A stretch of 18,981 nt of DNA. Source: a virus (lineage: Duplodnaviria > Heunggongvirae > Uroviricota > Caudoviricetes). A program made the translations under genes and the position numbers. Where the stretch lies: the IMG/VR virus record IMGVR_UViG_2558860274_000004, positions 1 to 18,981 of that record; one strand, written 5' to 3'. The notes under the pieces are model-generated. The model had not been told where the DNA came from. It saw only the letters and a list, made by a program, of their open reading frames with translations, and made no database searches. Of this stretch, positions 2,759 to 18,981 are shown in pieces (the first letter of the stretch is position 1; the number at the start of each line of letters is the position of its first letter).

Positions 2759-3304
2759 TCAATGAACGGTATCGAGCAGCTTTAACAGCTCAGGGAATCG
2801 GGATTCGAAGAAATGCGGCTGCGTCTCGCGCGGATTTGCGGGACTGGTGATGTTCTTACCGAACATGCAGCCTTTCGCTGTCAGCGACCAGAATTTTTTG
2901 ATGTTGTTAATCGCGGTACGGCTGTATCGTTCGCGCTGCTCGACGATCCCCAGCTTCACCATCTGGTGATATGCCTGATTAGCCGTCAGGCGGATAACCG
3001 GTCCCCACTCCACCAGCATTCTTTTCACCTGTCTGTCGTCTTCCCACACACCCGCGTGGGTCAGGGCGTCAAACAGCGCCTTGTTATAGTTGTCCAGATC
3101 GCGGATCCGGTTAACTGGCTTTGAAGTACGGGTCTTCGCGTTTTTCTGTGTACGTGCTGACGGACGGCGATAAGCGCAGGGAAAGCTCATCCCATTTTTC
3201 CCGCAGCTTCGACGGGCTGAGCACGTTACGGCACCAGAACGGATCGCGGCTGACGCGGCTGTACATCTCGCAGATTTGTTTGTGAGTACGACCATCCTGC
3301 ACAC
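2759..3304 (-). CDS. RusA-family Holliday-junction resolvase-like ORF (motif clear, N-terminal boundary uncertain)
   Basis: Contains RIRDLDNYNKALFDALTHAGVWEDDRQV, which aligns with the RusA catalytic-Asp core ([28 protein letters not shown] from memory). The ORF-track N-terminus (GTG start, Arg/Ser/Ala-rich) does not look like RusA and overlaps the 3' end of the upstream O-like ORF by about 190 nt in another frame. True start may be the internal ATG near 3190, or the gene is frameshifted. Confidence 0.5.
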   Translation of the reverse strand: MCRMVVLTNKSARCTAASAAIRSGAVTCSARRSCGKNGMSFPCAYRRPSARTQKNAKTRTSKPVNRIRDLDNYNKALFDALTHAGVWEDDRQVKRMLVEWGPVIRLTANQAYHQMVKLGIVEQRERYSRTAINNIKKFWSLTAKGCMFGKNITSPANPRETQPHFFESRFPELLKLLDTVH

Positions 3305-4022
3305 ACATCAGGCGAATTTCGTTTGCCCAGGCTGTCCAGTTCGGTTCTTTGGGACGAACCACCTCGCCGTCACATTCGGCGGCCTGCTCGTACAGGGCAA
3401 TGATTTTTTTCCAGAGCCACTGTGCGCAGGTCAAATCATCCTGCGTTCCCCACTGGCGCTTTTTAGGGCTGAATACAACCGCATCAGGATGGCGAGTTAA
3501 AAAATCCTTTTCAGCCGTCTGCGTGTCCGGTTGCGAAGCGTCCGGACGAGAAGGTTTTTTATCTGACGGATCATGTTTTGATTTTACTGACGGATCCCCG
3601 CCAGATTCTGACGGGTGAAAACCCGCTTTTTTGCCAGATTTCGACGCATCAAATTTTGACGGGTCAGATTTTGATGCGTCAGATTTTGATGCGTCAGATT
3701 TTGACGGGTCAGAATCTGACAGTTGAGAAAATGCCGCTGCCTGAAGCTTCGCAACGTTAAGCTGATAAACATTCGACGCATTGCGGTTACCCTGGCGACG
3801 CGCCTTACGCGTTAACCAGCCTTCTGCTTCCAGCCGTGCGATAGCCGTTCTGACGGTGCTCATCCCCGCGCCAATCTGGCGGGCAATGGTTTCAATTGAT
3901 GGCCAGCACACACCTTCGTCATTACTGAAATCAGCCAGGCGGGCCATAATTGCCACGCTGGATAACTTCATGCCTGACGCAGCGCAACCATCCCATACAT
4001 AGCCGGTTAATTTAGTGCTCAT
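3111..4022 (-). CDS. replication initiator protein (lambda O-like role) with HTH N-terminus and internal iteron-encoded repeat
   Basis: 303-aa ORF with GAGG Shine-Dalgarno 7 nt upstream of ATG at 4022. N-terminal winged-HTH-like segment (SIETIARQIGAGMSTVRTAIARLEAEGWL). Central SKSDASKSDASKSDPSKFDASK repeat is encoded by 15-bp direct DNA repeats, the arrangement of lambdoid O genes that carry ori inside the coding sequence. Confidence 0.7.
   Translation of the reverse strand: MSTKLTGYVWDGCAASGMKLSSVAIMARLADFSNDEGVCWPSIETIARQIGAGMSTVRTAIARLEAEGWLTRKARRQGNRNASNVYQLNVAKLQAAAFSQLSDSDPSKSDASKSDASKSDPSKFDASKSGKKAGFHPSESGGDPSVKSKHDPSDKKPSRPDASQPDTQTAEKDFLTRHPDAVVFSPKKRQWGTQDDLTCAQWLWKKIIALYEQAAECDGEVVRPKEPNWTAWANEIRLMCVQDGRTHKQICEMYSRVSRDPFWCRNVLSPSKLREKWDELSLRLSPSVSTYTEKREDPYFKAS
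3580..3725. repeat. iteron array (candidate prophage origin of replication) inside the initiator gene
   Basis: At least four tandem 15-bp units (gtcagattttgatgc, gtcagattttgatgc, gtcagattttgacgg, gtcagaatctgacag) at about 3656-3722, plus degenerate copies upstream (ctgacggatc at 3582-3600). Each unit has internal dyad symmetry (tcagattttga vs tcaaaatctga). Confidence 0.6.
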
Positions 4023-4031
4023 GACCGACCT

Positions 4032-4370
4032 CTATTTCCCTGAATTTACGACGAAACTGTTCGAGCGGACTGAAGCATTCATGCTCATAACCTTCGCGGA
4101 GGTAGATAACCCGTTGTGTTTCCGGCTCCCAACGAATGACTCTGACGGGCACTCCGTAGTGATCTTTGAACCAGCGGTTAACTTGTCGCAAAGGACTGTC
4201 TCCTTCTGCCGGTTGAAATCACCCACAGCCCACTCTGCAAAGCTGTGGGTTACAATTTCCCTATCACCTGGTACATTCACTGCATAGCAATATTCCACCT
4301 TCGCTTTTCCACCCGGTACAGGAAGCGCAATCAGTTGCGAGCGACGGTAGTGTGTTGTTAAACTGTTCAT
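4032..4370 (-). CDS. hypothetical protein (112 aa)
   Basis: ATG at 4370 overlaps the TGA stop of the upstream CII-like gene (ATGA overlap, translational coupling). Stop at 4032-4034 lies 10 nt before the initiator start. No recognisable motif. Confidence 0.45.
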
Positions 4371-4924
4371 GCGTTAGTTTCTCCACAACCAGAAGCAATC
4401 GACGCCACGACGCCCGGAGCTGCACACTCGCGGGCGTCATTACTTTCTGAAATGCAAAAAATTTTGTAGACAAGTGCTGCATGCTCCTGCAGCTTCGAAA
4501 TTGAGAGATACAGCTCGTCGTTAATTGCTGTCTTCTCATGCGGTTCCACTACGCCGTCTTCGATTGCTGAACGAATCTGTTTTGAATAACTGCCGATCTG
4601 TTCAATGACTTCCAGCAGACGCTGGTTAATATCGGCGTTGTCCACATCCTCGACGTCAGGAAGAGACACAAAGACGCCATTTGCAGACTGCGCCACAGCA
4701 TCAGCAATGAAGTGAGTGCCACCAGCACGCTGTAAAACCATTGCCCATCCCAGCGGGAAAATCTGATCGCCATCTGCACGAAGGCGGTTGAATAAAGCGT
4801 TTTCTGTTACATCGAGCCAGTCAGCCGCTTCAGCGTAACCACCCGGCAACGCCGCGATAGTTTTTCTGACAGCTTTCACGTACCACTCAGGCTGTTTTTC
4901 CACTTTCCAGTGATGATTACCCAC
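4367..4924 (-). CDS. CII-like phage regulatory protein (family assignment tentative)
   Basis: 185-aa ORF directly downstream of cro-like gene in the same operon. GTG start preceded by AGGAGG 6 nt upstream. Position and size fit CII-like prophage regulators; no catalytic motif seen. Confidence 0.5.
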
Positions 4925-5177
4925 GGCTTACCTCCTGTTCCTGTGGTTTAAACCCATTCTGGTTTTGGCTAGATTGAAAACGTGCCGGATAAAGAATCTG
5001 CATTTCGCTGATTTCACCCTTAAAAAAATTGGCCAGACGTTCTGCAAGATCGATAGATGGAATTTGTTCCAGTCTTTCAATACGACTCAGCGTCGCTGGA
5101 TTGACCTGAACGCCAGCAGCAACATGCTGCAAAGTAAATCCGTGCGCCTTACGCACATTCCGTAATGGTGATTGCAT
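4917..5177 (-). CDS. Cro/XRE-type HTH transcriptional regulator (cro-like)
   Basis: 86-aa ORF divergent from the cI-like gene. GGAGG Shine-Dalgarno 4-8 nt upstream of ATG at 5175-5177. Helix-turn-helix-like segment FTLQHVAAGVQVNPATLSRIE. Confidence 0.75.
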   Translation of the reverse strand: MQSPLRNVRKAHGFTLQHVAAGVQVNPATLSRIERLEQIPSIDLAERLANFFKGEISEMQILYPARFQSSQNQNGFKPQEQEVSRG

Positions 5178-5274
5178 ATGACCTCCACATATTGCGTGAT
5201 GAGCATATTATTTCACGCAAATATTTTGCGCAAGTTGATTTGCTTAACGCGCAATAAAGAAATGTAATAAACGC
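5178..5274. promoter_or_regulatory. immunity-region divergent promoters and operators between cro-like and cI-like genes
   Basis: 97-bp intergenic region with repeated TTGCG(T/C) / (A/G)CGCAA half-sites: ttgcgtga-N13-tcacgcaa (5192-5220), cgcaaa-tat-tttgcg (5215-5229), ttgcgcaa (5226-5233), acgcgcaa (5247-5254). Candidate -10 taatat for the leftward (cro) promoter on the minus strand at 5205-5210. Candidate ttgctt/tgtaat rightward promoter giving a near-leaderless cI transcript. Confidence 0.55.
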
Positions 5275-5967
5275 ATGAACATAGGAAACCGAGTCAGACA
5301 ACTTCGCCAGGCGAAGAACATGAAAATCGCCGATCTCGCTGAAGCAATAGGAGTGGATGCGGCGAATATCTCACGCCTGGAAACAGGTAAGCAGAAACAA
5401 TTCACTGAACAAGCCCTGAGTAATATTGCCAAGAGCTTAGGTGTTGATATTGCTGATCTCTTTACCTCAGACTTCAAAAGTAATACTGTATGTAAAAACA
5501 GTATTAGTGAGGATGTTGCGCAGGTGAAGGATGTATTCCGTATTGAAATGCTGGATGTCAGTGCCAGTGCGGGAAATGGCCTTATCCAGGGCGGTGATGT
5601 CATTGATGTGATTCATGCCATTGAATACAGAACTGATAATGCTGTATCGATGTTTGGCGGACGGCCAGCCAATCACATTAAAGTTATCAACGTTCGTGGG
5701 GACAGTATGTGTCCAGCCATTGAGCCAGGAGATCTCATCTTCGTTGATGTCAGTATCAATCAGTTTGATGGAGATGGTATCTATGTATTTGGTTTTGATG
5801 ATAAAATTTATGTCAAACGACTGCAAATGATACCTGACAAACTACTGGTGATTTCTGATAACCAGATTTACCGTGAATGGGGAATTACCAGCGAAAATGA
5901 ACACCGGTTTATGGTCTTTGGAAAGGTCTTAATCAGCCAGTCACAAACCCTTAAGCGACACAATTAA
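5275..5967 (+). CDS. cI-like repressor, LexA/S24 family (N-terminal XRE HTH plus C-terminal autocleaving peptidase domain)
   Basis: 230-aa ORF. HTH segment MKIADLAEAIGVDAANISRLETG. Ala-Gly candidate cleavage site in SASAGNG (about residues 99-100). Ser in VRGDSMCP and Lys in YVKRL spaced 37 residues apart as in the LexA Ser/Lys dyad. Confidence 0.9.
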   Translation: MNIGNRVRQLRQAKNMKIADLAEAIGVDAANISRLETGKQKQFTEQALSNIAKSLGVDIADLFTSDFKSNTVCKNSISEDVAQVKDVFRIEMLDVSASAGNGLIQGGDVIDVIHAIEYRTDNAVSMFGGRPANHIKVINVRGDSMCPAIEPGDLIFVDVSINQFDGDGIYVFGFDDKIYVKRLQMIPDKLLVISDNQIYREWGITSENEHRFMVFGKVLISQSQTLKRHN

Positions 5968-5987
5968 CCCTTACCTCCTCATCAATT

Positions 5988-6009
5988 AGCCACCCAAAGG
6001 TGGCTTTTC
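5988..6009 (+). terminator. intrinsic terminator downstream of cI-like gene
   Basis: agccacc (5988-5994), caaa loop, ggtggct (5999-6005), followed by tttcatt. Confidence 0.5.
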
Positions 6010-6485
6010 ATTACCCTTTAAATTGCATATCTCGCAACAAAAGCACTTGCATAATGCGCAACTTCATTTTATCTTTCTTTCCAGACAAACAAACAAGGTA
6101 CTAACAAAATTTGGTTGTAACACGGCGTATGGCACATGCGTCGTTAGCGGTCTGGGGACGTTAAAGGGGACAATCCACTCCTTGCTCGGGCAAACAAACC
6201 AGGTAGCCGGAATGTGCAAGTCAATGATGATGCTGATAAGACGCCTAACCAGCGTGGCGATCCGGTTTGACGCCTGGGAAGAGACCAGGGTGCAACGATG
6301 AGGGCATTTATAGAGCCGCGACAAAGTGTGGTGCCGTAACTGGCTAAGTGCTCTCAGCGTTGTGGTAATCCGCGAAATGGCGCGGCGGTAAGTATGGCGG
6401 GGTTACTCTTTCCCCGTTGAGGACACCGGATTGTCAGGTTGACCATACGCCTGAGTGACAACCCCACCACAACAGCCACTGCTTT

Positions 6486-6532
6486 GGCGGTACCAGTTTG
6501 TACACTTGCTTCCTGCTGGTACCGCTCTTTTT
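6486..6532 (+). terminator. strong hairpin plus T-tract inside the long leader upstream of the early-left genes
   Basis: ggcggtaccag (6486-6496), about 19-nt loop, ctggtaccgc (6516-6525), followed by tcttttt (6526-6532). Confidence 0.5.
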
Positions 6533-6669
6533 ACAAAACAGAGAAGAGCATCACCGGACGACGGGCTCATAACCCAATCCATCCGGGCGGCTGCCACCGC
6601 AGGTGTTCTTCTCTGTTTTGTGGAGAAACCAACCGACCTTGCAGGGTCGATATGATGAGGAGCAGCAAA

Positions 6670-7032
6670 ATGGCTAGCGAACGCAGTACTGATGTGCAGG
6701 CATTTATCGGGGAGCTGGACGGCGGCGTATTTGAAACCAAAATCGGCGCAGTTCTCAGTGAAGTCGCTTCCGGTGTGATGAACACGAAAACCAAAGGTAA
6801 GGTCTCACTCAACCTGGAAATCGAACCATTTGATGAGAACCGTGTGAAAATCAAACACAAACTCTCATATGTTCGCCCGACTAACCGCGGGAAAATTTCC
6901 GAAGAAGACACCACCGAAACGCCGATGTATGTCAATCGCGGTGGTCGCCTGACTATTCTGCAGGAAGACCAGGGACAATTACTGACTCTTGCCGGTGAAC
7001 CTGACGGAAAACTACGCGCAGCAGGTCATTAA
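6670..7032 (+). CDS. small early prophage protein (about 121 aa), hypothetical
   Basis: ORF track gives 6439..7032, but the plausible start is ATG at 6670 with GAGGAG about 8 nt upstream. The upstream extension overlaps the terminator hairpin and has no ribosome-binding site. Size resembles a YfdP-like protein (recollection only). Confidence 0.5.
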   Translation: MASERSTDVQAFIGELDGGVFETKIGAVLSEVASGVMNTKTKGKVSLNLEIEPFDENRVKIKHKLSYVRPTNRGKISEEDTTETPMYVNRGGRLTILQEDQGQLLTLAGEPDGKLRAAGH

Positions 7033-7097
7033 TATCGTTCTTAATTAACTGATTATTTATCTCATCACTGAATATCTTTATATAGTGAGGACTTATT

Positions 7098-7922
7098 ATG
7101 TCTCAGAACTTAGACGCAACCGCAATTAATCAAATCCATGCCCTTATTTCTGCTCAGGGTGTTAATGAAATTATCAGTAATATTGGTGCCGATGCTGTGG
7201 CATTGCCTGAGAATTTCCGCATTCATGATCTGGAAAAATTTAATTTAAATCGCTTCCGTTTCCGTGGTGCGCTTTCCACTGCCAGCATCGATGACTTTAC
7301 CCGTTATTCTAAAGATCTTGCAGATGAAGGCACCCGCTGCTTTATCGATGCTGATAATATGCGTGCCGTCAGTGTACTTAACCTGGGTACTATTGATGAA
7401 CCAGGTCACGCAGATAACACCGCCACTCTCAAACTGAAAAAGACAGCACCGTTCTCTGCCCTGTTGTCTGTTAACGGCGAGCGTAACTCCCAGAAGTCAC
7501 TGGCAGAATGGATTGAAGACTGGGCCGACTACCTTGTGGGCTTTGATGCTAATGGTGACGCTATTCAGGCAACAAAAGCGGCTGCGGCAGTCCGTAAAAT
7601 CACGATTGAAGCAAACCAGACCGCTGATTTTGAAGATAATGACTTCAGCGGCAAACGCTCCCTGATGGAGTCTGTCGAAGCGAAGACCAAAGACATTATG
7701 CCAGTGGCATTTGAATTTAAATGCGTTCCGTTTGAAGGTCTGAAAGAACGTCCGTTTAAATTACGCCTCAGCATTATCACTGGCGATCGTCCTGTACTGG
7801 TTCTGCGCATTATTCAGCTGGAGGCGGTGCAGGAAGAAATGGCTAACGAATTTCGTGATCTGCTTGTTGAGAAATTCAAGGACAGCAAAGTAGAAACCTT
7901 TATTGGTACTTTCACCGCCTGA
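7098..7922 (+). CDS. DUF2303-like prophage protein (YfdQ-like, 274 aa)
   Basis: ATG at 7098 with GAGGA 8 nt upstream. Length and gene order (followed by an HD-domain gene and DUF551 genes) match my recollection of the yfdPQRST block of E. coli prophages. Identity not verified. Confidence 0.6.
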
Positions 7923-8049
7923 TTTCATTACTGCAAATGCCCCTGCGGGGGCATTTATGGAAACGTAATTTACTCAATAATCGCCGGATGGTGAGGGATT
8001 CTTTTTACCAGAATTCAGCGCGGTGCAGCGCATATACGTGGAGAACAAA

Positions 8050-9535: not shown

Positions 9536-9961
9536 ATGGAATTACAGGACTGGCGAAAAGAACCTCGTAAAAACTATTCGAATGAATTCAAACTTCGTAT
9601 GGTGGAACTGGCATCACAACCTGGAGCTTGTGTTGCACAGATTGCACGTGAAAATGGCGTCAATGATAATGTTATTTTCAAATGGCTCAGGCTCTGGCAG
9701 AACGAAGGGCGTGTTTCGCGGCGTCTTCCGGTAACGACCTCTTCTGACACTGGCGTTGAATTATTACCTGTAGAAATAACGCCGGATGAGCAGAAAGAAC
9801 CTGTGGCGGCCATTGCGCCGTCTTTATCCACTTCCACTCAGACCAGAGTCAGTGCCAGTTCCTGCAAGGTGGAATTCCGTCACGGCAACATGACGCTGGA
9901 AAATCCATCGCCAGAGCTGCTCACAGTGTTGATCCGTGAACTGACCGGGAGGGGAAGATGA
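9536..9961 (+). CDS. tnpA: IS66-family accessory protein TnpA (orf1)
   Basis: 141-aa ORF with HTH-like N-terminus (NYSNEFKLRMVELASQPGACVAQIARENGV), first gene in the IS, overlapping tnpB by 4 nt. Confidence 0.8.
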   Translation: MELQDWRKEPRKNYSNEFKLRMVELASQPGACVAQIARENGVNDNVIFKWLRLWQNEGRVSRRLPVTTSSDTGVELLPVEITPDEQKEPVAAIAPSLSTSTQTRVSASSCKVEFRHGNMTLENPSPELLTVLIRELTGRGR

Positions 9962-10308
9962 TCTCACTCCCATCAGGTACCCGTATCTGGCTCGTTGCCG
10001 GCGTTACCGATATGCGTAAATCCTTCAACGGACTGGGAGAACAGGTACAACATGTGCTGAATGATAATCCCTTCTCCGGTCACCTGTTTATCTTCCGTGG
10101 CCGACGGGGTGACACCGTCAAAATTCTTTGGGCTGATGCTGATGGTCTGTGCCTGTTCACCAAACGCCTGGAGGAAGGCCAGTTTATCTGGCCTGCGGTA
10201 CGTGACGGCAAGGTATCCATTACCCGCTCGCAACTGGCAATGCTCCTCGATAAGCTGGACTGGCGTCAGCCAAAAACATCCAGCCGTAACTCACTGACAA
10301 TGTTGTAA
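9958..10308 (+). CDS. tnpB: IS66-family TnpB (orf2)
   Basis: 116-aa ORF (LPSGTRIWLVAGVTDMRKSFNGL...) in the characteristic middle position of IS66 elements. Confidence 0.8.
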   Translation: MISLPSGTRIWLVAGVTDMRKSFNGLGEQVQHVLNDNPFSGHLFIFRGRRGDTVKILWADADGLCLFTKRLEEGQFIWPAVRDGKVSITRSQLAMLLDKLDWRQPKTSSRNSLTML

Positions 10309-10338
10309 AAAACTCCTGACCGCATTATAAAAACGGTC

Positions 10339-11952
10339 ATGAGTCAGAAATACCTCATTCGCATCGCAGAGCTGGAAAGGTTGCTCTCTGAGCAGGCTGA
10401 AGCCCTCCGTCAGAAAGACCAGCAACTGAGTCTGGTTGAAGAGACGGAAGCCTTCCTGCGCTCTGCACTGACACGTGCCGAAGAAAAGATCGAAGAAGAT
10501 GAACGGGAAATAGAACATCTGCGGGCTCAGATAGAAAAACTGCGCCGGATGCTGTTCGGTACCCGTTCTGAAAAACTGCGTCGTGAAGTTGAACTGGCTG
10601 AGGCTCTGCTGAAACAACGTGAACAGGACAGCGATCGTTACAGTGGGCGGGAAGACGATCCTCAGGTTCCCCGCCAGTTGCGACAGTCGCGCCATCGTCG
10701 TCCGTTACCGGCACACCTTCCCCGTGAAATACACCGCCTGGAGCCAGAAGAAAGCTGTTGCCCGGAGTGTGGCGGTGAGCTGGATTATCTGGGGGAAGTC
10801 AGCGCTGAACAGCTGGAACTGGTGAGCAGTGCCCTGAAAGTGATCCGCACAGAACGGGTAAAAAAAGCCTGTACAAAATGTGACTGTATTGTTGAAGCAC
10901 CGGCGCCGTCCCGCCCGATAGAGCGTGGTATCGCGGGCCCCGGATTACTTGCCCGCGTGTTAACGGGAAAATACTGCGAACATCTGCCACTGTATCGTCA
11001 GAGTGAAATCTTTGCCCGCCAGGGTGTCGAACTGAGCCGGGCCTTACTCTCCAACTGGGTTGACGCGTGCTGCCAGTTAATGACACCGGTGAATGATGCC
11101 CTGTACCGTTATGTAATGAACACCCGCAAGGTTCACACTGATGACACACCGGTAAAGGTACTGGCACCGGGTCAGAAAAAGGCGAAAACAGGGCGTATCT
11201 GGACGTATGTCCGGGATGATCGCAATGTGGGTTCGTCATCTCCTCCAGCGGTCTGGTTCGCGTACTCGCCGAACCGGCAGGGGAAACACCCGGAGCAACA
11301 CCTCCGCCCCTTCCGGGGTATCCTGCAGGCGGATGCGTTCACAGGTTACGACAGGTTGTTCAGTGCAGGACGTGAAGGTGGTGCACTGACAGAAGTTGCG
11401 TGCTGGGCCCATGCCCGGCGAAAAATCCACGATGTATACATCAGCAGCAAAAGTGCGACGGCAGAAGAAGCACTGAAGCGAATCAGTGAACTGTACGCCA
11501 TCGAGGATGAAATACGGGGATTACCGGAGTCAGAGCGTCTTGCCGTCAGGCAGCAGCGAAGCAAAGTGTTACTGACGTCGCTGCATGAATGGATGGTGGA
11601 GAAGAATGGTACGCTGTCGAAAAAATCCAGACTGGGCGAAGCGTTCAGCTATGTACTGAATCAGTGGGATGCCCTCTGTTATTACAGTGATGACGGTCTG
11701 GCGGAGGCGGATAATAATGCTGCGGAAAGAGCGCTTCGTGCAGTCTGTCTCGGAAAGAAAAACTTTATGTTCTTTGGCAGCGATCACGGCGGCGAGCGTG
11801 GAGCACTGTTGTACGGGCTGATCGGCACCTGCCGTCTGAACGGTATCGATCCGGAAGCGTATCTGCGCCATATCCTGAGCGTACTGCCGGAATGGCCTTC
11901 CAACCGAGTTGATGAACTCCTGCCATGGAACGTAGTACTCACCAATAAATAA
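10339..11952 (+). CDS. tnpC: IS66-family transposase TnpC (orf3)
   Basis: 537-aa ORF with N-terminal coiled-coil/leucine-zipper region, CxxC...CxxC zinc-finger-like motif (CCPECGGEL...CTKCDC) and a C-terminal catalytic region, as in IS66 transposases. Confidence 0.85.
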   Translation: MSQKYLIRIAELERLLSEQAEALRQKDQQLSLVEETEAFLRSALTRAEEKIEEDEREIEHLRAQIEKLRRMLFGTRSEKLRREVELAEALLKQREQDSDRYSGREDDPQVPRQLRQSRHRRPLPAHLPREIHRLEPEESCCPECGGELDYLGEVSAEQLELVSSALKVIRTERVKKACTKCDCIVEAPAPSRPIERGIAGPGLLARVLTGKYCEHLPLYRQSEIFARQGVELSRALLSNWVDACCQLMTPVNDALYRYVMNTRKVHTDDTPVKVLAPGQKKAKTGRIWTYVRDDRNVGSSSPPAVWFAYSPNRQGKHPEQHLRPFRGILQADAFTGYDRLFSAGREGGALTEVACWAHARRKIHDVYISSKSATAEEALKRISELYAIEDEIRGLPESERLAVRQQRSKVLLTSLHEWMVEKNGTLSKKSRLGEAFSYVLNQWDALCYYSDDGLAEADNNAAERALRAVCLGKKNFMFFGSDHGGERGALLYGLIGTCRLNGIDPEAYLRHILSVLPEWPSNRVDELLPWNVVLTNK

Positions 11953-12495: not shown

Positions 12496-15400
12496 TCACA
12501 CGCTGCGCCTTCGAGAATATTCATTTAATCGCTGATAACGAACATCTTGCTCCAGTTGTGGAGCAGCTTGAACAATTTGAAGCAAGCATTGCCCCAACTC
12601 TCGAGGCCCCCAGTGTTGTTCGGCAATCACGGCATTCAGCAGGGATAGAGCGTCCGCAGGATATCGGCTGCAAATATCTGATTCTAGCAAAAGGCGAACG
12701 TCGTAGCTAAGGTGTTCGAGCGGTTGCAGCCAGTCCTGCACCACTGCCAAAGCCGCCGGAAATTCACCTCGGGCAGCAATCACCATACGAGTCAACGATT
12801 CGGATATGCGTGGGGTGGCCAAGTTGCGGGACTTTGGCCAAACCTGTTGCCAAAATGGCTGGACACGATTTTTCCAATACTCCTCGCGCTGATCGCCCGC
12901 ACCTTCAAGTGCCTGGTATAACGCCTGCGCGGCTACCTCCAGACCTTCTTGTGGAAGAGCACTAATTGCCGTTCGGAACTCCTCCACGGTATATCCCTCG
13001 GTAGGGCCCAGAGCTGCATAAGTCAGGAAAATAGCGAATTGCTGCCGGTGCTCGCCAAGATCAGAATAGTGATTGGCGCTCTCCAAAAAATCTGACTTGA
13101 AAGCTATCAGCAACGGTTCATACAGGCGTGGCGACCAGAGGAAGCCTTCCCACACAGCTTTTGCTTCGACGGGATTACTCCAAGCAAACAAGGGCAATAG
13201 ATACTGTTCGGTCCAAGGTCGATCTACGCGAAAAAATGCGATCAGCCGCGACCCCAGCAACACCCGACCATGGCGGAATAGCTCTATCTGTACATTACAC
13301 AATTTGGTGAAAAGTGTTTTCAATTCAACAGGAAGCAAATCATTGTCATTCGGGTTCTGTTTGAACCATAGGGTGATCAGTGATTGCGTGACATGCCCAA
13401 TGGGATGATTGATCGCCGTAGAAACAGGATCATAGGTCTCAATTCCGTTTCGAATGGTGCTAGACTCTGGGCTTGTTTCTATCATCAGAACCCGACGACA
13501 AAGGGCCAGTAGAATCTCCTCGTGGCAGAGGATGGTCTTCGAAGCCTCCTCCATCCACCAAGTGACAGCGTGGGAAATCTCCTGAAGTACTGCGTCAGGC
13601 ATGTCAAGCACCAACGGTGCGGCGTACCGCCACGAACGCATAATCATCCCTGGTTCAGCCCAAGTCTGCAGAGCTTCACGCCACCGACCAACAGGCCACA
13701 CATCATCTTGTGATAGTTTACGTAACGCATACAGACTGTGAAAAAAGCGCGTACGGCAAACATCACTCCAAGTGTCCTCATAGAAAGGCAGTCTTTCTGG
13801 CATAGGCTTTGCGAGCCATTGCACTAATTCCTGCCACTTACGGGGCGCAATGTCGACATCTATACTCTCCTCGAAGCCTGGATCACCGGTTCCGCTCATC
13901 CAGTGAGAGAATTCATCACGCTCGTTGGTTGCCAGTTGCCATTTTGGGTATGCTGTGGATATTTCCGTCAAACGTGTAGCCGCAGACTCTCCCAAAACAA
14001 GGCCCGCTCCCCTGAGCTTCGCTAGACACAACCAGACGGAATGAGCCACCAAATAATGCCACCTGTCTGCTTCCAAATTATCCTCGTACATCTCGCGCGG
14101 AGGCCCTGCCAAGATAGCAGTTTCCAGACGCTCTTGTGCAATTCCTGTCAGATGTCGTCCCTGCAAAACAAACAGTCTGAATACCTCTCGCCGAGTATCC
14201 GTGGCCCACAACCACCATGAACCGTCCTCTAACAACCAATTAACCCACCGCTCAGGTGGTATGCAGTTGTCTTGGCTTGCGGCAAACAGTGCCAGACGTT
14301 TGAAGGTGGGATATGGCAACTCAAACCAATTCTGAGCAATGCGCGAGGCCTGATCGCTGTCTTTGGCTCGAACGGCTAACCATGAATCCCGAAGTAATTC
14401 AATCAGGCTCACCCAATCGCGGAACCCCCGGTTCTGCCAGTGCGGAGTGATGGACGGCAAATCCCAATGCGAGCGGTCGTGACGATCGTCGGACTCTCCC
14501 AACTCCCGCAACAAGTCCAGTGCATCACGCAACAACTGCTGAAAATCTTCCAACAGGTATGGCAAGGACGATTTCCATGACTCGTCAGCAAGGTCGAACA
14601 GGGTTGAACGTACGTAATCAGCAGTCAGCACCAGCTCCCAATCCACCAATTGCTTGATTCGCAAGGGTTCATCAGTGCTGCTCGAATCGTCTTCACTATA
14701 GCGAAACGGCCGCCTCAACATAACCTTGGGAGAAAGCAACTCGCGTAACTCCAAGCGCAATGTAGTCGTCAAGCCTTCATTCTTTAAGCGGTTTTGCCAA
14801 CGATACAAATCCAGGTTCTGCAATGGCGATTTCACACGACCACTAAGCAGAAGCCGCCATAAAGTAGACATAGGTGGACCAGGAATAGCCAGGGGGGAAT
14901 GCAAGAGAATTTCATCTAACTCAGAAGTCTTACGCTCCCGCATCAGTGCTGCTAAGCGATCTAGTTCGCTCTCAATCAGAAACATCCAACGGTCGTGTAT
15001 TTGTCCGCCGCGTTCAGCAATCCATATGATCAACCTAGGGTCGCCCAGATAACGAACTAGCCAACGGGCTATATGGGACATTACGTCATCCCATTTGCTA
15101 GCACTGACACATCCAGAAACCAGCGACATCTGCGGGGCCAGCTCATAGGGCGCAGGACGCTGAACCAGACTGAATCGGAGTTTCGGGTCAATTTCGACAT
15201 GCGGAGATACACAAAAGCGTGGCAGATCGCTGTATTTAAATCGTTCGTCCGAGAAAGCTTTCAATAACCAATCCAGCGGCGGTGCAGGATTGAGTTCCGC
15301 AAAGCGTTTTGCTGGTAAACCTGATTTATCTGACAAGGCCCACAACATCCGACCAACGAAATCGTCCTGACGAGTGCTGTCCTGCGGGCGGGCCAGAGCA

Positions 15401-16323
15401 TGTTTGACGACTATAGCCTCTTTGCCCTGTATACCATCTCGATAAGTATCTGCCCAAGCGTGCAACGTTTGATGCAGCACTGAATGATCAGTGGAGCCCG
15501 CCGGTACGGTGTAAAGGATAGGAGTGACCCCTTTGGCCTCCCACTCGATGGCTTTCCGGTGCTCCTGCCCCGGCTCACACTCCCCCAGTGCCCATACTTG
15601 TGGTGTGACTTCACCGAGCCTCCGATCTGCTGCAAGCGCATCCATCATGTAGCGCAGTACCGGGTCGTTGATGCTGTAGCCAACGAAGCAGACCACATAG
15701 TTACGAAATAACTCACTCACAAAGCGAGCTGCCCAACGCTCAGTGAGATAAGCCAAGCCAAAGTCACCGCTGGTAACAACCAGACGATTCAGGGCAGTAT
15801 CATCCGCCTTTTCCGGTAACAGCCCATGCAGGTATACAAGTCCATCCCAGCGGCTGTTTTTTGGAATTGGCAGCATCGGCGCTACATAGGCCTGAAAAGC
15901 CTGGCCTGTACGTTTAGCTGCCACATGAAAGAGACGGTCAAAGTTGGTAGTGACCAATCGAAGGGCACCCTCGCGGCTACGGGCTAAACGTAACAGCGCC
16001 GCCTGAGTATCAATAGCGCCCCTACGACGGAGCTTTGGCTTAAGGGCTTTTTCCAACGCGCGTCGGACGGCTATACGCTGCCCTGGTAAGCGCCGTTCCA
16101 GCAAATCTAATGTGCCGTCAAATTGCCCACGCTCGAAAACCTCACGCTCAATTTCTGAAAGTGTTGTTCCGTTCCTCTGGTAAATTAGTTCTACCAACCC
16201 TTTGAAACCAGGTAAACCAGCAGGGTAGGAAATGCCTGCTCCACAGAAGAACACAACGCGCCCTTCCTCGTGCGCCTGCAAAAGCTCATCAGGAATATCA
16301 GGGCCGTTGGTAATGAATTGCAT
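12496..16323 (-). CDS. large SIR2-domain protein (1275 aa): N-terminal SIR2-like NAD+-binding domain plus unassigned C-terminal helical region; candidate single-gene anti-phage defence
   Basis: AGGAGG Shine-Dalgarno 7-8 nt upstream of ATG at 16323. N-terminal motifs VVFFCGAGISYPAGLPGF (GAGIS NAD-binding loop), LVTTNFDRLFH (TQNID-like with catalytic Asn) and VYLHGLL (catalytic His-Gly). No Walker A (GxxxxGK[ST]) found by eye. C-terminal 1000 aa is Leu/Trp/Arg-rich and looks helical-repeat-like. Confidence 0.85.
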   Translation of the reverse strand: MQFITNGPDIPDELLQAHEEGRVVFFCGAGISYPAGLPGFKGLVELIYQRNGTTLSEIEREVFERGQFDGTLDLLERRLPGQRIAVRRALEKALKPKLRRRGAIDTQAALLRLARSREGALRLVTTNFDRLFHVAAKRTGQAFQAYVAPMLPIPKNSRWDGLVYLHGLLPEKADDTALNRLVVTSGDFGLAYLTERWAARFVSELFRNYVVCFVGYSINDPVLRYMMDALAADRRLGEVTPQVWALGECEPGQEHRKAIEWEAKGVTPILYTVPAGSTDHSVLHQTLHAWADTYRDGIQGKEAIVVKHALARPQDSTRQDDFVGRMLWALSDKSGLPAKRFAELNPAPPLDWLLKAFSDERFKYSDLPRFCVSPHVEIDPKLRFSLVQRPAPYELAPQMSLVSGCVSASKWDDVMSHIARWLVRYLGDPRLIIWIAERGGQIHDRWMFLIESELDRLAALMRERKTSELDEILLHSPLAIPGPPMSTLWRLLLSGRVKSPLQNLDLYRWQNRLKNEGLTTTLRLELRELLSPKVMLRRPFRYSEDDSSSTDEPLRIKQLVDWELVLTADYVRSTLFDLADESWKSSLPYLLEDFQQLLRDALDLLRELGESDDRHDRSHWDLPSITPHWQNRGFRDWVSLIELLRDSWLAVRAKDSDQASRIAQNWFELPYPTFKRLALFAASQDNCIPPERWVNWLLEDGSWWLWATDTRREVFRLFVLQGRHLTGIAQERLETAILAGPPREMYEDNLEADRWHYLVAHSVWLCLAKLRGAGLVLGESAATRLTEISTAYPKWQLATNERDEFSHWMSGTGDPGFEESIDVDIAPRKWQELVQWLAKPMPERLPFYEDTWSDVCRTRFFHSLYALRKLSQDDVWPVGRWREALQTWAEPGMIMRSWRYAAPLVLDMPDAVLQEISHAVTWWMEEASKTILCHEEILLALCRRVLMIETSPESSTIRNGIETYDPVSTAINHPIGHVTQSLITLWFKQNPNDNDLLPVELKTLFTKLCNVQIELFRHGRVLLGSRLIAFFRVDRPWTEQYLLPLFAWSNPVEAKAVWEGFLWSPRLYEPLLIAFKSDFLESANHYSDLGEHRQQFAIFLTYAALGPTEGYTVEEFRTAISALPQEGLEVAAQALYQALEGAGDQREEYWKNRVQPFWQQVWPKSRNLATPRISESLTRMVIAARGEFPAALAVVQDWLQPLEHLSYDVRLLLESDICSRYPADALSLLNAVIAEQHWGPRELGQCLLQIVQAAPQLEQDVRYQRLNEYSRRRSV

Positions 16324-16616: not shown

Positions 16617-17785
<1,169 letters not shown>

Positions 17786-17841: not shown

Positions 17842-18981
17842 TCAGTGTGCCACTACATAAACTTGCCATACACCTGGCAGTTTATGACCGAGCATTATTT
17901 CAGCAATATGAGGCGCAGTAAGATCAGAAAAGTTTGTTCGTGCTGTTCGTCTCAAATCATGAAGAGACCAATGAGGAAATTGATACCCCAAACGCCGCCA
18001 TGCGTACTGCATTAAATTGTAAGGCAGCGACTGCAATGATGTCCGACCAACTGGTTCCCTGCTTCCTTCCTTAGTAAAAAGCATATCGGAACCGTTGTTC
18101 ATAGAGATAACGTATTTTATAAGCTCTTCAACCGGTTCAATAATGGGCCGCTTTAGCGGTTCGCCTGTTATATCCCCTGTCTTATGTCGTTCTGGTGGTA
18201 CAGTCCATATTTTATTAATGAAATCAAAATCGTCCACCTTGGCAGTAATTAGCTCTGAACTACGGCAACCAAAATGCAGCAATAGTTTAATGAAGGCCCG
18301 GTATTTAGGAACCATTCGAGAACCATCGATCGCAGCATAAAGGATTTTAATTTCATCATGTGTCAGAAACCGTTTCTTCTGACCTTTACGGATATCCATA
18401 TCTTTACCCGTGATATCCGACAGCGGGCGAGTTTCAATGAGCTTTCTCTTATACGCCCAGACATGGGCCTGCTTTGCGTTAATTAGCAATCGGTCTGCTA
18501 TTGCTGGAGTCTTAGTGCTAAGAGGCTCCAGGACTTCTAACCAATCATGCAATGTAGCTGCATCGTGAGGGATATTCCCGATTTTAGAGAACAGGTGCAG
18601 CTCAAACGAGCGGAGTATCTGTTCAGAACCTTTTTTATTTTTTACACAATATGCTTCATACCAAGCACGGATCACAGATTCTACCGTCATGGCTTCAGTA
18701 GCTTTACGTTTTTCTGCCAGCTTGACCAATCGTGGATTGCGGTTTGACTCGAGTTCACCACGAAGACGGATAACTTCTTCTCTGGCCTCTTTTAGTCCAG
18801 TTGCCGGGTAAGTTCCGATATCAAGACGCTCACCTTTCCCCGCCCACTGATAACGATATTGGAACACTACGCGACCTTTCGGTGATACTCTAACAGACAG
18901 ACCATCACGATCGGATTTAACCAAAACCTTATCACGTTCCTTTCCAACGACTGAACGCAACCACGCATCAGACAGCGCCAT
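17842..18981 (-). CDS. int: tyrosine integrase, P4-like; C-terminal tail replaced by IS-derived codons after insertion
   Basis: ATG at the window edge (18979-18981). N-terminus MALSDAWLRSVVGKERDKVLVKSDRDGLSVRVSPKGRVVFQYRYQWAGKGERL is arm-binding-like. Catalytic region ...HDLRRTARTNF...LGHKLPGVWQVY. After the Tyr codon the frame runs into the IS end (VVAH-stop at 17842-17844). Native continuation lies at 16506-16608. Confidence 0.85.
   Translation of the reverse strand: MALSDAWLRSVVGKERDKVLVKSDRDGLSVRVSPKGRVVFQYRYQWAGKGERLDIGTYPATGLKEAREEVIRLRGELESNRNPRLVKLAEKRKATEAMTVESVIRAWYEAYCVKNKKGSEQILRSFELHLFSKIGNIPHDAATLHDWLEVLEPLSTKTPAIADRLLINAKQAHVWAYKRKLIETRPLSDITGKDMDIRKGQKKRFLTHDEIKILYAAIDGSRMVPKYRAFIKLLLHFGCRSSELITAKVDDFDFINKIWTVPPERHKTGDITGEPLKRPIIEPVEELIKYVISMNNGSDMLFTKEGSREPVGRTSLQSLPYNLMQYAWRRLGYQFPHWSLHDLRRTARTNFSDLTAPHIAEIMLGHKLPGVWQVYVVAH

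Follow-up and report, generated by a model that had tools for sequence, protein, structure and literature searches.

A candidate lambda-type replication origin within the O-like initiator gene of loader-less lambdoid phages

An O-like replication initiator gene in the window (the whole 18,981-base stretch of prophage DNA analysed here) carries, between the parts encoding its two domains, a tandem array of palindromic 15-bp repeats that are very likely the initiator-binding sites (iterons) of a lambda-type origin. We find that the repeats exist, that they are clustered beyond chance, that they occupy a lambda-like position in the gene and that the gene encodes an O-like initiator. Origins embedded in initiator genes are textbook knowledge for lambda and P22, and an embedded origin is in itself ordinary; the value of this one is that it supplies a widespread group of temperate phages, so far unstudied, with a candidate origin. 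The hosts of the group are E. coli, Shigella, Klebsiella, Citrobacter, Yersinia and related genera, and it includes the Shigella serotype-converting phages SfII and SfIV. The candidate is defined by GTCARAWTCTGAC at 15-bp spacing, an isolated further copy and a GATC-bearing A+T-rich block. Together with a DnaT-like tail on the intact initiators, it makes the question of how phages with an O homologue and no helicase loader replicate directly testable.

Repeat array and domains of the initiator gene

A first-pass annotation of the window had described, at 3580-3725, tandem 15-bp units with internal dyad symmetry that are translated in frame as an SKSDA-type peptide repeat inside a replication-initiator gene. 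Both the units and their translation are as described. Tandem Repeats Finder confirms the 15-bp period (5.3 copies, 85% matches, 3635-3713), and a repeat search of the window returned 5-7 in-register copies at 15-bp spacing as well as numerous inverted repeats. The units run TCA AAA TCT GAC GCA, with close variants, on the coding (minus) strand, and the 303-aa open reading frame (ORF) translates the array as SDSDP-SKSDA-SKSDA-SKSDP-SKFDA-SKSG. The palindrome GTCARAWTCTGAC is present in every 15-bp unit, giving six abutting palindromic units and an isolated seventh (Table 1). The array lies inside the interval first proposed, the conserved block around it reaches lower, to about 3550, and the gene that contains it is on the minus strand.

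The clustering of these sites is far beyond chance. At up to two mismatches to GTCARAWTCTGAC there are 7 distinct sites, corresponding to 13 strand matches, all of them in 3600-3720 (nt 303-423 of the initiator gene), and none outside that interval across the whole window. Shuffled sequences are expected to give 1.6 +/- 1.5 matches, and 13 was reached in 0 of 200 shuffles. The number of tandem units differs between genes that are otherwise near-identical: among the 76 scorable members of a set of 80 such genes, 72 carry five units, three carry six and one carries seven. The window gene has the rarer six-unit form, with one 15-bp unit more than its intact relatives. Such a change in copy number by whole units is the behaviour expected of iterons.

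Table 1 Positions of the features of the window discussed in the text
Feature	Position	Strand	Basis
Chimaeric ORF: internal rusA fragment and C-terminal part of KilA-N regulator	2759-3304	-	Made by two deletions
Deletion scar: internal rusA fragment joined to truncated 3' end of initiator gene	2992..3113	-	Comparison with L003
O-like replication initiator gene, 303 aa, 3'-truncated	3111..4022	-	ORF, PHROG 391, nucleotide identity
C-terminal domain homologous to lambda O C-terminal domain (aa 171-282)	3177..3512	-	tblastn, BLASTP
Conserved A+T-rich block, presumed unwinding region	3550..3597	.	Anchored alignment of homologues
Isolated 17-bp palindrome CCGTCAGAATCTGGCGG (seventh site, 3600-3612), 33 bp from array	3598..3614	.	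Motif scan
Presumed iterons: six abutting 15-bp units, each with GTCARAWTCTGAC	3633..3720	.	Repeat finders and motif scan
Six tandem sites	3633-3645, 3648-3660, 3663-3675, 3678-3690, 3693-3705, 3708-3720		
N-terminal winged-helix DNA-binding domain (aa 1-97), presumed iteron reader	3732..4022	-	Pfam HTH_36
IS66-family element, three ORFs including a 537-aa DDE transposase	9536-11952	+	
1275-aa SIR2-domain protein, full-length match to anti-phage defence protein Dsr1	12496-16323	-	PADLOC E = 0
IS3-type integrase-core transposase	16617-17456	-	
Phage integrase	17842-18981		

A search of the encoded protein against initiator families, which the first-pass annotation had proposed as a check, places it in a family of replication initiators: it matches PHROG 391 ('replication initiation O-like') with an E value of 1.3e-129, residues 1-299 aligning to positions 1-283 of the 298-position profile. 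The DNA of the gene is 97% identical to that of genes of the Shigella phages SfIV and SfII, Escherichia phage Kati and many E. coli prophages. Upstream of it lie cI, cro, cII-like genes and a small gene without known function, the pattern of a lambdoid early rightward operon.

The protein combines a DNA-binding N-terminal domain with a C-terminal domain of the lambda O type. The N-terminal domain matches Pfam HTH_36 at aa 23-70 (E 4e-11), with weaker matches to GntR, MarR, DnaD_N and RP-C; a PDB sequence search of the initiator returned weak MarR-family chains alone (E 0.02). The C-terminal domain shares 39.3% identity with that of lambda O (E 8e-18 by tblastn and 1e-25 by pairwise BLASTP), the part of O that interacts with P in lambda. 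At E <= 0.01 the window initiator gives no match to Phage_rep_O (PF04492), for which lambda O itself scores 5.7e-36. The initial impression that the protein does not resemble lambda O is accordingly borne out for the N-terminal domain, an HTH_36 domain in place of Phage_rep_O, and mistaken for the C-terminal domain. Between the two domains, aa 100-166 lack secondary structure in a low-confidence single-sequence AlphaFold2 model (mean pLDDT 46.5), which is too poor for a fold search, and the array is located in the stretch coding for this linker. A scan of the initiator gene for promoters and terminators gave nothing informative. In two E. coli chromosomes (L063 and L086) the first 79 codons of the initiator gene, at 99% identity, continue into an unrelated 455-aa ORF and an iteron array is missing, an arrangement that resembles the fused O-like pseudogene of the K-12 prophage e14.

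Conservation of the repeats as DNA

We compared the array across a homologue set of 80 loci, one genome per species, from which duplicate, truncated and fused copies were removed; with the window gene and five phage genes added, the comparison comprised 80 non-identical genes. Over the first 90 residues their products share 53-100% identity with the window protein, and they come from many Enterobacterales, the genera including Escherichia, Shigella, Citrobacter, Klebsiella, Kluyvera, Yersinia, Pantoea, Providencia, Proteus and Serratia. All 80 homologues have between 3 and 10 sites within nt 250-600 of the gene, and neighbouring sites are spaced by 15 bp in 256 of 364 cases, counts that derive from motif-matched sites and are to that extent biased toward conservation. 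The motif has a density of 15.8 per kb in nt 250-600 against 0.29 per kb elsewhere in the gene, and it hardly occurs in the flanking 5-6 kb in the 80 loci. The isolated site is the best conserved copy in 77 of the 80 homologues, with third codon positions that are 0.97-1.00 fixed.

An alignment anchored solely on G[AG]NGATCC, which is found in 77 of the 80 genes, avoids this selection of sites by motif; it covers the isolated site and the A+T-rich block only. Columns at fixed gene coordinates in the tandem array are blurred by differences of register, and we rely on the GATCC-anchored block instead. The anchored alignment reveals a block of about 70 nt, GGTTTTGACCCGTCAGAATCTGGCGGGGATCCGTCAGTAAATTCAAAACAAGATCCATCAGATAAAAAA, in which the four-fold degenerate third positions are mostly 0.82-1.00 fixed (TCA 1.00, TCT 0.97, GTA 1.00, CCG 0.82-0.91). 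The exception is the four-fold site of GGC at the edge of the palindrome, which is 0.48 fixed, like neutral sites. In the part of these genes that encodes the N-terminal domain, conserved four-fold sites (n = 23) are fixed at a mean of 0.50 and a maximum of 0.71. The first base of the same TCA codon, by comparison, is T in only 0.52 of genes, so that the encoded residue is S, P or A.

The peptide is considerably freer to change than the DNA. Across the 80 homologues the motif-matched units, again biased toward conservation, encode 114 different pentapeptides, in which the second residue is K, E, D or N, charge reversals included, and the 3-bp spacer codon specifies A, P, T or Q, varying even among near-identical genes. 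In phiP27 and in a further relative (L078), two compensating frameshifts leave TTTTSACCCKTCAGAATCTG, at the isolated palindrome, intact, and the segment is read as VLTLQNL or VFTRQNL instead of GFDPSES. Bases at positions -5 and +5 of the palindrome also tend to change together (T-A 281, C-G 37, T-G 62, C-A 24; odds ratio 7, p = 4e-11), a test that ignores phylogeny and uses motif-matched sites biased toward conservation. Read together, these patterns indicate that the repeats are under selection as DNA, more strongly than as encoded peptide. The first-pass annotation had named an absence of DNA-level conservation across homologues as a finding that would count against an origin; the homologues show the DNA to be conserved, which contradicts a reading of the array as a coding linker only.

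The anchored alignment also delimits the A+T-rich block next to the isolated site. This block contains two GATC sites, at 3593-3596 and 3569-3572, as well as a pair of GATCCGTCAG half-site repeats at a distance of 24 bp. At all codon positions, conservation is 80-100% over most of its 5' two-thirds and weaker in the 3' third. Its richness in A+T is modest: the consensus among homologues (a 45-nt block) has 65-75% A+T, and the peak in the window itself reaches only 57-60% (40-nt windows). No DnaA box is found near the array; TTWTNCACA occurs in the window only at 13737 and 18640, which is the level expected by chance. The GATC sites are kept in most of the 77 anchored genes, the first of them in 77 of 77, and many relatives have an adenine methyltransferase gene near the initiator (L003, L005, L006 and L007 among them). 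Two conserved GATC sites and nearby methyltransferase genes hint, by analogy, at a methylation-sensitive control of the origin, as is known for oriC and P1.

Comparison with known origins and other readings of the array

The arrangement resembles lambda ori in that several palindromic repeats lie in the middle of the gene, in the part coding for the linker, with an A+T-rich stretch on their 3' side; as in lambda, the initiator follows cro and cII in the early rightward operon and has a homologous C-terminal domain (39% identity). The four lambda iterons (ATCCCTCAAAACGAGGGA and variants), at intervals of 20, 24 and 23 bp, occupy nt 349-435 of O, and an A-rich stretch comes after them. In contrast to the array described here, with its five to seven abutting 15-bp units, the lambda iterons are about 19 bp long and are read in different frames. 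Because a period of 15 bp is a multiple of three, the peptide is repetitive too in the window family, unlike in lambda. The family further differs from lambda in the N-terminal domain of the initiator, HTH_36 rather than Phage_rep_O, and in having no P gene. To the right of its A+T-rich region lambda has a palindrome (CGTCAGAGAATTCTGGCG; L169 1466-1490) that resembles the family iteron (CGTCAGAATCTGGCG; window 3598-3616); this likeness could be due to chance or be a vestige of common ancestry.

Other systems share parts of this layout. In lambda, P22 and phage L the iterons lie inside the O or 18 gene, and gene 18 of P22 and of L has, as here, initiator-specific iterons within its coding region, those of L being six imprecise short (11-bp) repeats (PMC8022706). 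The P22 and L modules have a DnaB-type helicase gene (gene 12) beside the initiator, whereas the window family has none. Like iteron plasmids of the RepA, pi and RepE type, the family combines a winged-helix initiator with repeated sites, whose binding is presumed here, beside an A+T-rich region. Plasmid iterons are typically direct repeats of about 17-22 bp that lie outside the rep gene and are accompanied by DnaA boxes; the units here, in contrast, are palindromic and intragenic, with a DnaA box absent nearby.

The conservation of the array as DNA in distant homologues and the PHROG 391 assignment argue for the lambda-style iteron array and origin that the first reading of the window had proposed, and we infer that the initiator binds the array, that the DNA unwinds beside it and that replication fires there. 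In the mechanism we propose, dimers of the N-terminal winged-helix domain would bind each palindrome, GTCARA-W-TCTGAC, and the five to seven abutting sites and the isolated site would together build a complex like the lambda 'O-some'. This complex would strain the adjoining A+T-rich block with its GATC sites, the block would open and the host DnaB helicase would be loaded next, via the C-terminal domain or tail of the initiator and host factors. Since the phages encode no loader, recruitment of DnaB would have to use that domain or tail together with host factors. The architecture of the bound complex is uncertain because the sites, abutting palindromes spaced at 15 bp (about 1.4 helical turns), are packed more tightly than in classical iteron origins. 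We found no binding, footprint or origin assay for this initiator family in the searchable literature, nor a prior description of its origin; work on SfV or Weigel and Seitz (2006) might contain one, and the paper on SfIV does not discuss the origin.

The same repeats could also be read in other ways. A slippage-prone, low-complexity coding linker, rich in Ser, Lys and Asp and without function as DNA, would account for the encoded pentapeptide repeat, for the lack of secondary structure in the low-confidence model of aa 100-166 and for changes of copy number by whole units. It is at odds with a fixation of 0.82-1.00 at four-fold positions, compared with 0.50 for the N-terminal domain, while the amino acids vary; with 114 peptides that include charge reversals; and with retention of the motif in another reading frame in phiP27 and L078. 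Because third positions are fixed, peptides vary and retention is independent of frame, we take the linker-only reading to be excluded and regard it as scarcely credible. Selection for mRNA structure, with the tandem palindromes forming a long hairpin to govern how the initiator message is translated or how stable it is, could likewise conserve the nucleotides, and we consider it very improbable. As RNA, a 186-nt stretch folds with -61 kcal/mol (z = -8.1 against shuffles), and the symmetric base changes are compatible with base pairing as well; however, any tandem palindrome array folds in this way, the DNA strand included (z = -6.4), and folding z-scores therefore do not separate the readings. 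What speaks against a hairpin is that a single unit has a 1-nt centre and forms no hairpin of its own, that gain and loss of units (3-10 per gene) shift the long-range pairing partners and that the isolated site and the A+T-rich block, conserved best of all, are outside the predicted hairpin core.

Conservation of the DNA shows that there is selection on it, not what the selection is for, and the palindromes might be protein-binding sites in another role, for instance sites through which the initiator would autoregulate or roadblock the early rightward transcript, or which some other phage or host factor would bind, with the origin elsewhere. The modest A+T-rich block and the absence of DnaA boxes would fit such a role. 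We nevertheless think it unlikely: the position in the gene, the multiple palindromic sites and the A+T-rich block downstream of them mirror lambda ori, the protein has the C-terminal domain of lambda O, and a second cluster at which replication might start instead is lacking, the motif being nearly absent from the 5-6 kb flanks of the 80 loci.

Helicase loading in intact relatives and decay of the window prophage

If the repeats are the iterons of an intragenic origin, the question of how the helicase reaches it follows. The initial reading had found no obvious loader gene after the initiator, only a gene with a RusA motif, and had suggested that the replication module might be unusual. The lack of a helicase loader is real in intact relatives, whereas the RusA neighbour is an artefact of two deletions in the window. 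Beside the initiator, the annotations of SfIV, SfII, Kati, the E. coli C6 prophage, KpF5, phiNP and YeP3 list neither P nor a DnaC-like or DnaB-like gene, and SfIV, SfII, Kati, KpF5, phiNP and YeP3 are intact, plaque-forming relatives. Searches by tblastn for homologues of lambda P, of DnaC from E. coli and of the loader and helicase of P27 gave matches in only 10 of 88 loci, a count that a loader of unknown type would escape.

The suggestion of an unusual module is upheld in that the intact relatives have an O-only, loader-less module, a class that has already been recognised. According to the relevant passages of a recent paper (Genome Res 2025, PMC12315714), 34 of 314 lambdoid phages carry only an O homologue, phage LLS being an example, and those passages state that none of this type has been studied and call its replication not understood. 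Like the O-only modules described there, those of the window family have a single lambda O homologue and no helicase or loader gene (PMC12315714). Neither 'origin' nor 'iterons' occurs in the passages of that paper that deal with these modules (0 occurrences of either term). A second group of initiators, of 335-374 aa (L021, L027, L029, L044, L046, L057, L060-L062, L067-L076 and YeP3 (L007)), ends in a different conserved tail (W-x-x-I-W-K/Q...), and no loader gene was detected for it.

In intact relatives the initiator terminates in IPxGFRG or the variant PENxGFRS (L001, L002, L003, L009-L082), a tail that is lost in the window copy (3111-3113). The tail accompanies several kinds of C-terminal domain: lambda-O-like ones, Phg_2220_C and ones that are neither. 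It resembles the end of DnaT (primosomal protein I): a profile of 12 phage C-termini aligns by hhalign with E. coli DnaT over 21 columns, at the exact C-terminus of both (probability 92%, E 5.7e-7), and the SfIV and DnaT tails are identical at 8 of 9 residues. The common part comprises the last 9-21 residues of the intact initiators. We considered membership of the initiators in the DnaT family and rejected it, the likeness being limited to those 9-21 residues; the DNA-binding domain of DnaT (PF17948) gives no match in the initiators, only in DnaT, and the trimerisation domain is absent from them as well. The database name 'primosomal protein' is misleading for these initiators because the DnaT tail alone is common to both.

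In DnaT the last 20 residues are a flexible tail, and DnaT appears to recruit DnaB-DnaC (PMC5778457). Relatives that do encode a loader differ in whether they have the tail. The exact C-terminal motif is missing in relatives with a lambda-P-type loader (L051, L079) and in those with a P27-type loader and helicase (phiP27, L078); it is found as IPPGFKG in two relatives with a close DnaC homologue (L085, L087), and in three more relatives with DnaC (L056, L077, L088) IPxGF is internal and the protein continues beyond it, an ambiguous case. One possibility, which we regard as tentative and on balance doubtful, is that O-only phages load the helicase by mimicry of DnaT, the tail recruiting host DnaB-DnaC or PriA/PriB to the intragenic origin; the pattern among loader-carrying relatives speaks for it. 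If this were true, it would also give the DnaT tail a function.

Using the intact locus of the E. coli C6 prophage (L003) as reference, we traced two deletions in the window. Window 3112-7997 corresponds to L003 6925-11795, 2992-3113 to 5088-5209 and 1563-2996 to 3001-4434, leaving 4435-5087 and 5210-6924 of L003 missing. The initiator gene thereby lost its last 46 nt and rusA both of its ends; the 5' part of a KilA-N gene went as well, together with yfdN and the genes for a LexA-like protein and a methyltransferase. The window initiator is consequently without the final 15 residues, YDNVDYSQIPAGFRG, of its intact relatives, a truncated 3' end that is common to only 1 of 80 near-identical copies. 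Because its initiator is short of these 15 residues, the window copy is probably no longer a working replicon. With a truncated initiator, deleted genes and insertion sequences, the window prophage is a decayed remnant. Two of its ORFs, at 1-1233 (+; 410 aa) and 6439-7032 (+; 197 aa), have no Pfam or PADLOC match. The gene for the SIR2-domain, Dsr1-like protein sits within the prophage between the IS66-family and IS3-family elements.
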